Shown here piece by piece: positions 49,842 through 50,230 of a stretch of 64,000 bases of DNA. The stretch covers positions 1,302,001 through 1,366,000 of the forward strand of contig NW_027140825.1 in NCBI RefSeq assembly GCF_036365525.1, written 5' to 3'. The notes below the pieces were generated by a model that was given only the letters and a program-made list of their open reading frames with translations, searched no databases and was not told the DNA's origin. Source of the stretch: Heterodontus francisci. Its lineage: Eukaryota. The translations under genes and the position numbers were made by a program. How positions within the stretch are numbered: the stretch's first letter is position 1; every line of letters begins with the position of its first letter.

Positions 49842-50230
49842 TCCCGCAATTAGGGGGAGCAGTTGCTGGAGGTGCAGCTCTCATTGCCAACCAACAGGGG
49901 GGAGCAGTAGATGGAGGTGCAGCTCTCATTGCCCACCAACAGGGGGCAGCAGTAGATGGAGGTTCAGCTCGCATTGCCCACCAAAAGGGGGTAGCAGTCG
50001 CTGGAGGTGCAGCTCTCTTTGTCTACCAACAGAGGGCAGCAGTAGACGGAGGCGCAGCTCTCTGCCCACCAAAAAGGGGGCAGCGGTCGATGGAGGTGCA
50101 GCTCTCAGTGCCCACCAACAGGGAGCAGCAGTAGATGGAGGTGCAGCTATCATTGCCCACCCACAGGGAGCAGCAGTAGATGGAGGTGCAGCTGTCATTG
50201 CCCACCAACAGGCGGCAGCAGTAGATGGGA
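49842..50230 (+). repeat. ~45-bp tandem repeat (~9 units), each with a CTCF-like core and an upstream TGCAG
   Basis: Unit gtgcagctctcattgcccaccaacagggggcagcagtagatggag. Confidence 0.8.

Follow-up and report, generated by a model that had tools for sequence, protein, structure and literature searches.

CTCF sites on the RSS side of V genes are already known from the D-proximal VH segments of mouse and human (VH81X-CBE type; PMC6746451, bioRxiv 10.1101/2020.01.01.891473), and the human VH domain also contains CTCF "hot spots" with up to 50 sites in 2.1 kb of IGH (PMC6746451). Downstream of the constant gene, the 3'Igh CBE cluster or super-anchor (see also PMC7826415) comprises about ten co-oriented sites, which are convergent with the sites upstream of D and in the V region (PMC10293834), while IGCR1 consists of two divergent sites located between V and the functional Ds (PMC10293834). 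According to the convergence rule, a forward CTCF site halts cohesin coming from downstream (PMC10772921, PMC10293834). The core of a CTCF site may be accompanied by an upstream motif across a linker of typically 5 nt (range 2-7), and in the IL3 insulator this motif is required for insulation (PMC12885311). Sharks possess an 11-finger CTCF (PMC7471279). Regarding locus layout, the salmonid TRB is doubled, with two V-D-J-C sets in opposite orientation, up to four loci and V genes in the middle (PMC10464911), and amniotes have TRBV genes inverted 3' of C and arranged to join by inversion (PMC11754216, PMC10464911).

The window analyzed here, meaning the whole stretch of 64,000 bp, corresponds to C779:1302001-1366000 in a 6.0-Gb shark assembly. 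The features on which the analysis is based, in window coordinates, are the following:

30255-31126 (+): open TRBV gene of the YVEQSP...SHTAVYFC family, with leader at 30255-30303, V exon at 30794-31087 and 23-RSS at 31088-31126
31147-31365 (+): array B, a sister 45-bp CTCF-like array of 4.9 units, starting about 20 nt after the nonamer of the V 23-RSS
46184-46517 (+): AWS-family V exon, the last one to have a complete 23-RSS (at 46479), without an RSS-side CTCF site
49581-49811 (+): V relic consisting of promoter, leader exon (49736-49772), GT donor at 49773 and the first 40 nt or so of the intron, lacking both V exon and RSS
49830-50230 (+): array A, with nine units of 45 bp (44 bp in one case); a CTCF-like core is present in each and a TGCAG upstream motif in most
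53357-53416 (+): D' segment, coding at 53364-53377, with a weak 5' RSS
53618-53696 (+): single J' with a 12-RSS, coding at 53646-53694, FGGR in place of FGXG
57158-57496 (+): exon 1 of C', TCR-beta-like, a frameshifted pseudogene

Array A is a real minisatellite of CTCF-like units in a shark TCR-beta locus. TRF analysis revealed a period of 45 bp with 8.4 copies at 49852-50228 and 85% matches, and counting of the units gave nine, with a degenerate first unit and a start near 49830. All motif matches are located on the + strand and point toward D-J-C. The 5' neighbour of the array is the leader-only V relic (ATG at 49736), and D' lies 3.1 kb downstream (53364-53377), a gap that measures about 3.4-6 kb in 10 other copies. 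The first-pass annotation had described a minisatellite-built tandem array of about nine units of some 45 bp, all in one orientation, between the last V relic and the D of a shark TCR locus, and this description agreed with the unit count, the TRF result and the identity of the locus as TCR beta.

Similarity to CTCF sites was scored with the JASPAR MA0139.1 matrix, which is mammalian and was entered by hand, with its column sums as the check. Five of the nine units of array A reached p ≤ 1e-5 (19.3, 18.3, 14.0, 13.3, and 12.9 bits) and six reached p ≤ 1e-4, while three were weak. In the whole 64-kb window, 10 matches at p ≤ 1e-5 were found versus 1.2 expected, and eight of them were located in arrays A or B. 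The consensus CCASYAGRKGGCRS, given in PMC6746451 too, was found six times in the window within one mismatch, versus a shuffle mean of 0.82 (0 of 100 shuffles reached six); among the units of array A it was approached this closely by two of nine only, and the array A core has an A where the CTCF consensus has C/G. To speak of "nine CTCF sites" is an overstatement: two units are strong, four moderate, and three weak. Since array A is a repeat, the shuffling of a single unit is the fair test, and when one unit was shuffled 200,000 times, a fraction of 1.05e-4 reached its score. The matrix scan against shuffled controls that had been proposed with the first-pass annotation therefore came out above background. 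Nine other minisatellites (eight in the window and one beside it) gave CTCF-matrix scores of at most 7.0 bits.

The upstream motif was present as exact TGCAG at -18 relative to the CC of the core in six of the nine units, as had been noted for most of them; this spacing equals a 6-nt linker and falls inside the range of 2-7 given in PMC12885311. Across the 24 paralogous A arrays, TGCAG was found at -17 or -18 in 105 of 145 scored units, and the 10-nt upstream motif of array A matches the IL3-insulator motif, as printed in PMC12885311, at 8 of 10 bases. Every one of the 24 A arrays retains 3-7 units at p ≤ 1e-5 plus 3-7 TGCAG units. The strong CTCF matches lie on one strand, with none on the opposite strand, in 60 of 60 A and B loci.

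Genome-wide, array A has 24 close copies with 87-100% identity on seven unplaced contigs. All 65 matches of an exact A-type 20-mer were inside these 24 arrays, and all 69 matches of a core 24-mer were on the seven contigs (C407, C761, C779, C876, C1317, C1675, and C2233), the reversed controls giving 0 in both cases. A B-type pattern was counted 196 times, and among the 100 matches listed all were on three of the seven contigs. The search for the repeat across the genome, also suggested at the outset, thus revealed no dispersed element; the array A repeat is locus-specific and confined to the TCR-beta locus family, and the dispersed-repeat reading was rejected since the exact matches all lie within the seven TCR-beta contigs.

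The layout of the locus, V(23)-(12)D(23)-(12)J-C with a beta-type C, is that of TCR beta, and all 60 PDB rows shown were TCR beta chains. The D-J-C set directly after array A is a pseudogene arm, broken in every copy read. The 3' heptamer of D' is TACCGTG in the window (broken) and CACCGTG in 10 other copies read, and the D' RSSs look usable in 10 of 11 copies. J' carries FGGR in all but one of the 11 copies, the remaining one having a stop, so that none of them has an intact FGXG frame, and C' was frameshifted in all 10 copies read of the 24. The J'-C' intron contains a 37-bp minisatellite (window 55588-56901), which reaches about 5 kb in C2233:170k and explains much of the variation in arm length. 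In the unit at C779:588508 (-), array A, D' and J' are present and C' is absent.

A protein search revealed a second C on the opposite strand; two other C hits, C5 and C23, were taken from their motifs to be a TCR-gamma C and an Ig light chain C, respectively. The arm of the second C is intact and lies beyond the window; it comprises an open C exon 1, 14 J segments of which one has a stop, a D flanked by good RSSs, a CTCF pair and V genes facing back. All 21 copies of its C exon 1 are open and have intact splice sites. The CTCF pair is non-repetitive, has its motifs in opposite orientations and is located about 5 kb upstream of D (L084:4635-4745 = C779:1400635-1400745). The D-facing site (20.7 bits at C779:1400745) was kept at 20.0-20.7 bits in all 20 further copies fetched of 22, and its partner was kept in 16 of these 20. 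Judged by its arrangement, this two-direction pair upstream of the intact D would be the best analogue of IGCR1, better than array A.

Several other elements were observed along the intact arm and around it. A 44-bp minisatellite of about 34 copies (L083:9622-10000 and L084:1-1136) starts about 140 bp upstream of the intact D and occupies the place where a D promoter would be expected; it was considered as a CTCF-like repeat and rejected, its best score being 2.6 bits. In many units (C407:470468, C779:1097037, and 15 more), a second D-like copy of 85-88% identity occurs some 9 kb closer to C. One single strong CTCF motif lies between the two C genes (C779:1367964, +), and the V region holds a divergent set at C779:1279958-1280100, with 22.7 bits on the - strand and two motifs of 13.8 bits on the + strand with CTGCAG upstream.

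Copy analysis revealed that TCR beta is amplified on the seven contigs, with units alternating in orientation. Each unit consists of two arms facing each other C to C, one of them dead, and is repeated at least 21 times in the assembly. A same-strand pseudo-C was found 7-15.5 kb downstream of 23 of the 24 A arrays, and an opposite-strand C accompanies 21 of the 24, at 23-34 kb in 17 cases and at 67-76 kb, behind a second A arm, in four. The array-D'J'C' arm is tandemly duplicated in four units (C407:311838/352252, C407:1376780, C1675:402716, and C2233:395131). At least 21 copies of C exon 1 are open (14 nucleotide and 4 protein variants), and there are 23 close copies of the intact D region, 23 of the CTCF pair and 24 of the pseudo-C. 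Distinct sequences were found for 18 of the 24 A arrays, for 59 B arrays and for 14 of the 21 C exons; the 18 distinct A arrays imply at least nine units per haploid set, and retained haplotypes could halve the figure of at least 21. Run X5 is spliced and RNA-like on TCR-gamma, and its depth is therefore no measure of copy number. The RNA-like contigs of this run over the C-beta J-C intron differ from the L082 copy and match a mosaic of other copies; their differences fit no single C-beta copy (best 33 of 36), and four of five variant groups match different copy sets while one matches none. These matches are at most a weak hint that several C-beta units may be transcribed.

Array B is located behind an open V gene of a family whose motifs agree with the peptides of the nurse shark beta V2/V3 primers (PMC5931798). 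Its paralogues comprise 59 distinct arrays of 1-38 units. In 35 of 36 overlapping loci the first strong site follows the start of the 23-RSS heptamer at a distance of 73 or 118 nt, the exception lying beyond the fetched edge. A second set showed a strong site in 40 of 43 V rows and a weak unit in the other three, and 34 of the 43 were stop-free in the part read. The B loci were partly selected for holding the repeat; ten, however, came solely from the V search, and none of these was without a unit. A contiguous stretch of 204 kb contains 26 V-RSSs, of which one had an adjacent CTCF site, and that one belongs to the array B family; the AWS-type V genes in the same 204 kb had no RSS-side CTCF site. 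Array B thus lies at a fixed short distance behind a V RSS, and array A does not. The consensus units of A and B have a common period and register and are identical at 17 of 19 matrix positions versus 16 of 26 positions outside (one-sided Fisher p = 0.037). In loci L009, L010, and L020 the first A unit still starts like a B unit.

Compared with the VH81X-CBE type, array B is alike in being fixed behind a V 23-RSS, bound to a particular V family and pointed toward D-J-C. It differs in the distance of the core from the nonamer, about 35 nt as against 17-19 in mouse and 19 or 48 in human, in its expansion to 1-38 tandem units and in belonging to a shark TCR-beta locus, which also holds an array, A, without V and RSS. 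The human VH hot spots are likewise dense CTCF runs in the V domain, with a spacing near the 45-bp period of the arrays, but they are described as not RSS-associated, whereas the array family starts at the RSS and array A marks the V/D edge. RSS-side CTCF sites are known in mammalian IgH; the orphan array in a shark TCR and the amplified C-beta locus appear to be new. A literature search of titles and abstract openings, in which subscription journals were thinly covered, gave no CTCF arrays in a shark TCR locus and no orphan array; within the same coverage, it gave no shark TCR-beta multicluster and no set of at least 21 open-first-exon C-beta copies.

The V relic next to array A is about 82% identical to an AWS-type V at 13490-13662 (-), and its homology to the AWS V intron stops near 49811. 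The leader relic stands directly upstream of array A in 24 of 24 copies, and no RSS was found within 1.5 kb of array A in any of the 24 loci. The AG at 49832-3 was considered as the true splice acceptor of the relic and dropped, the intron homology ending before it. Within the window, the closest template for the relic leader is an AWS-type V gene (12880-13700, -) that lies inverted amid V genes of forward orientation. A SINE-like insertion of about 355 nt lies between the relic intron and array A in two copies (L023 and L024).

Array A is most likely an orphaned RSS-side CTCF array whose V exon and RSS were deleted, and not a purpose-built IGCR1; it is read in this way because it is homologous to array B and follows a promoter and leader without a V exon. 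Among the candidates scored (40 of 92 and 40 of 184), no intact V with an A-type array was found, and for this reason its parent gene is one that we infer. The proposed course starts from the observed condition of one V-beta family, which has a CTCF-like unit at a fixed place behind the 23-RSS, repeated in tandem up to 38 times. A deletion would then have fused an RSS-side array to the 5' part of an AWS-type V gene, from its promoter and leader to the start of its intron; the junction is seen in the sequence, and the event is its presumed cause. A deletion reaching from the intron of one V gene to the array behind a lost V would be the simplest reading.

The resulting unit, V(n)-array-D'J'C'(pseudo) facing C-J(14)-D-CTCF pair-V(n), is seen in the assembly in about two dozen duplicates. 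As in salmonid TRB and the amniote 3' TRBV, V-D-J-C sets of opposite orientation and V genes inverted 3' of C are present, but unlike the salmonid loci the shark locus has its C genes head-on, with one of the two arms dead and more than 20 repeats of the unit. Array A resembles the 3'Igh CBE in forming a co-oriented cluster 3' of a functional C (21 of 24 arrays, within 76 kb), with a convergent site in 20 of 20 copies fetched. It differs from that cluster in that a pseudo D-J-C lies between array A and the intact C and that further V genes lie behind array A; the mouse sites, moreover, have a tested function and are not described in PMC10293834 as a 45-bp minisatellite. By analogy, array A may be a V-type site which, seen from the intact arm, has taken on the geometry of the 3'Igh CTCF cluster. 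Its units converge with the 20.7-bit site at C779:1400745, some 48 kb away. Under the convergence rule, CTCF bound at array A would stop cohesin leaving the D-J-C core on that side, and array A and the convergent site upstream of the intact D would help to close a loop of about 50 kb around the D-J-C genes of the unit. The V genes behind array A would have to join the intact D by inversion. A role of array A as a loop anchor is plausible. Our preferred interpretation, held with modest confidence, is that array A is a leftover of V deletion at the inner edge of an inverted V arm and that it likely binds CTCF as a one-way cohesin barrier.

This interpretation has to be weighed against a neutral one, which we regard as less likely, in which the array has the same origin and is a decaying relic copied along with the dead D'J'C' arm, perhaps binding some CTCF, with no effect on recombination. 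The divergence data are consistent with such a passenger: the p-distance between 11 representative copies was 0.076 for array A versus 0.063 and 0.047 for its flanks, and the high-information core positions (0.070) were barely more conserved than the rest (0.087), so that no clear constraint on the core is seen. The adjoining D', J' and C' are broken yet kept in all copies read, and the locus is full of other long minisatellites without a CTCF motif; since the dead arm was duplicated and kept as well, the presence of array A in 24 copies proves no selection. Against neutrality stands the retention of several strong units and TGCAG motifs in every one of these copies. The mean score of the 48 distinct A units, 14.74, falls inside the neutral range of the simulations (14.09 ± 0.71), although 85% of them reached p ≤ 1e-5, a share above that of all 1000 neutral simulations (at most 81%); the B units, with a mean of 16.63 versus 14.10 ± 0.34, were clearly above the neutral expectation. 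The p-values of these simulations are optimistic and the tests weak because the units are related by descent and not independent. Furthermore, a bound co-oriented cluster would be expected to impede extrusion whether or not it is under selection, to judge from PMC10293834.

The first-pass annotation had cited IGCR1 as a precedent and suggested an insulator or loop anchor; read as an element of the IGCR1 type, array A would separate the V genes from D' and enforce D-J before V-DJ joining on that arm. Like IGCR1, array A lies between the most proximal V and D; in 11 copies, scanned onward from the end of the array, no other CTCF cluster at p ≤ 1e-5 separates D' from the last V (the window copy containing N stretches), it stands 3-6 kb before D', and the D' RSSs look usable in most copies. 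We nevertheless consider such an insulator improbable, and the IGCR1-type reading was not supported: array A has a single orientation, in the manner of V-associated sites, as against the divergent pair of IGCR1 in PMC10293834, it is homologous to the V-RSS-side arrays, it precedes an arm in which C' is frameshifted and J' is without an intact FGXG frame in the copies read, and the intact arm has its own two-direction CTCF pair. Array A may have served as a V/D insulator before the arm died. Less probable still is an artefact, whether a motif arising by chance in a common repeat or misassembly as the source of the copies. The contigs are indeed unplaced (0.3-2.0 Mb), several copies are 100% identical and both haplotypes may be present; however, the unit shuffle gave p of about 1e-4, no matches were found outside the locus family, the numbers of distinct A arrays, B arrays and C exons cannot be two alleles, and 71-83% of the words were found in four DNA runs of one sample, possibly the source of the assembly. 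A coding repeat, with a secreted peptide of 15-residue repeats made by reading through from the relic leader without splicing, is scarcely credible. The unit of 45 bp does equal 15 codons, and in 17 of 24 copies the frame of the leader ATG continues into the array (window ORF of 132 aa), but in the other seven this frame is cut short or diverted before reaching the array, frame shifts occur within the array in many others, two of the three unit frames are open anyway, and splicing at the nearest AG gives 18-36 aa.

The preferred interpretation, a V-deletion leftover acting as a one-way barrier, can be extended to the whole locus, although this extension is speculative and we hold it to be doubtful: shark TCR beta would be an Ig-like multicluster of more than 20 self-contained units walled by CTCF minisatellites, in which the orphan array was co-opted as a 3' anchor, a site pair stands before the intact D, and the RSS-side arrays of 1-38 units tune V use as a rheostat. 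With at least 21 open-first-exon C-beta copies present, one may ask by what means a T cell is limited to one beta chain. The array B family offers a natural dose series, with 1-38 sites behind near-identical V genes, for relating the number of CTCF sites to V usage. If array A is bound by CTCF, it would indicate that loop extrusion controls V(D)J joining in a shark TCR, and it would illustrate a simple origin of an anchor, in which an RSS-side site becomes a minisatellite and, after gene loss, a domain edge.
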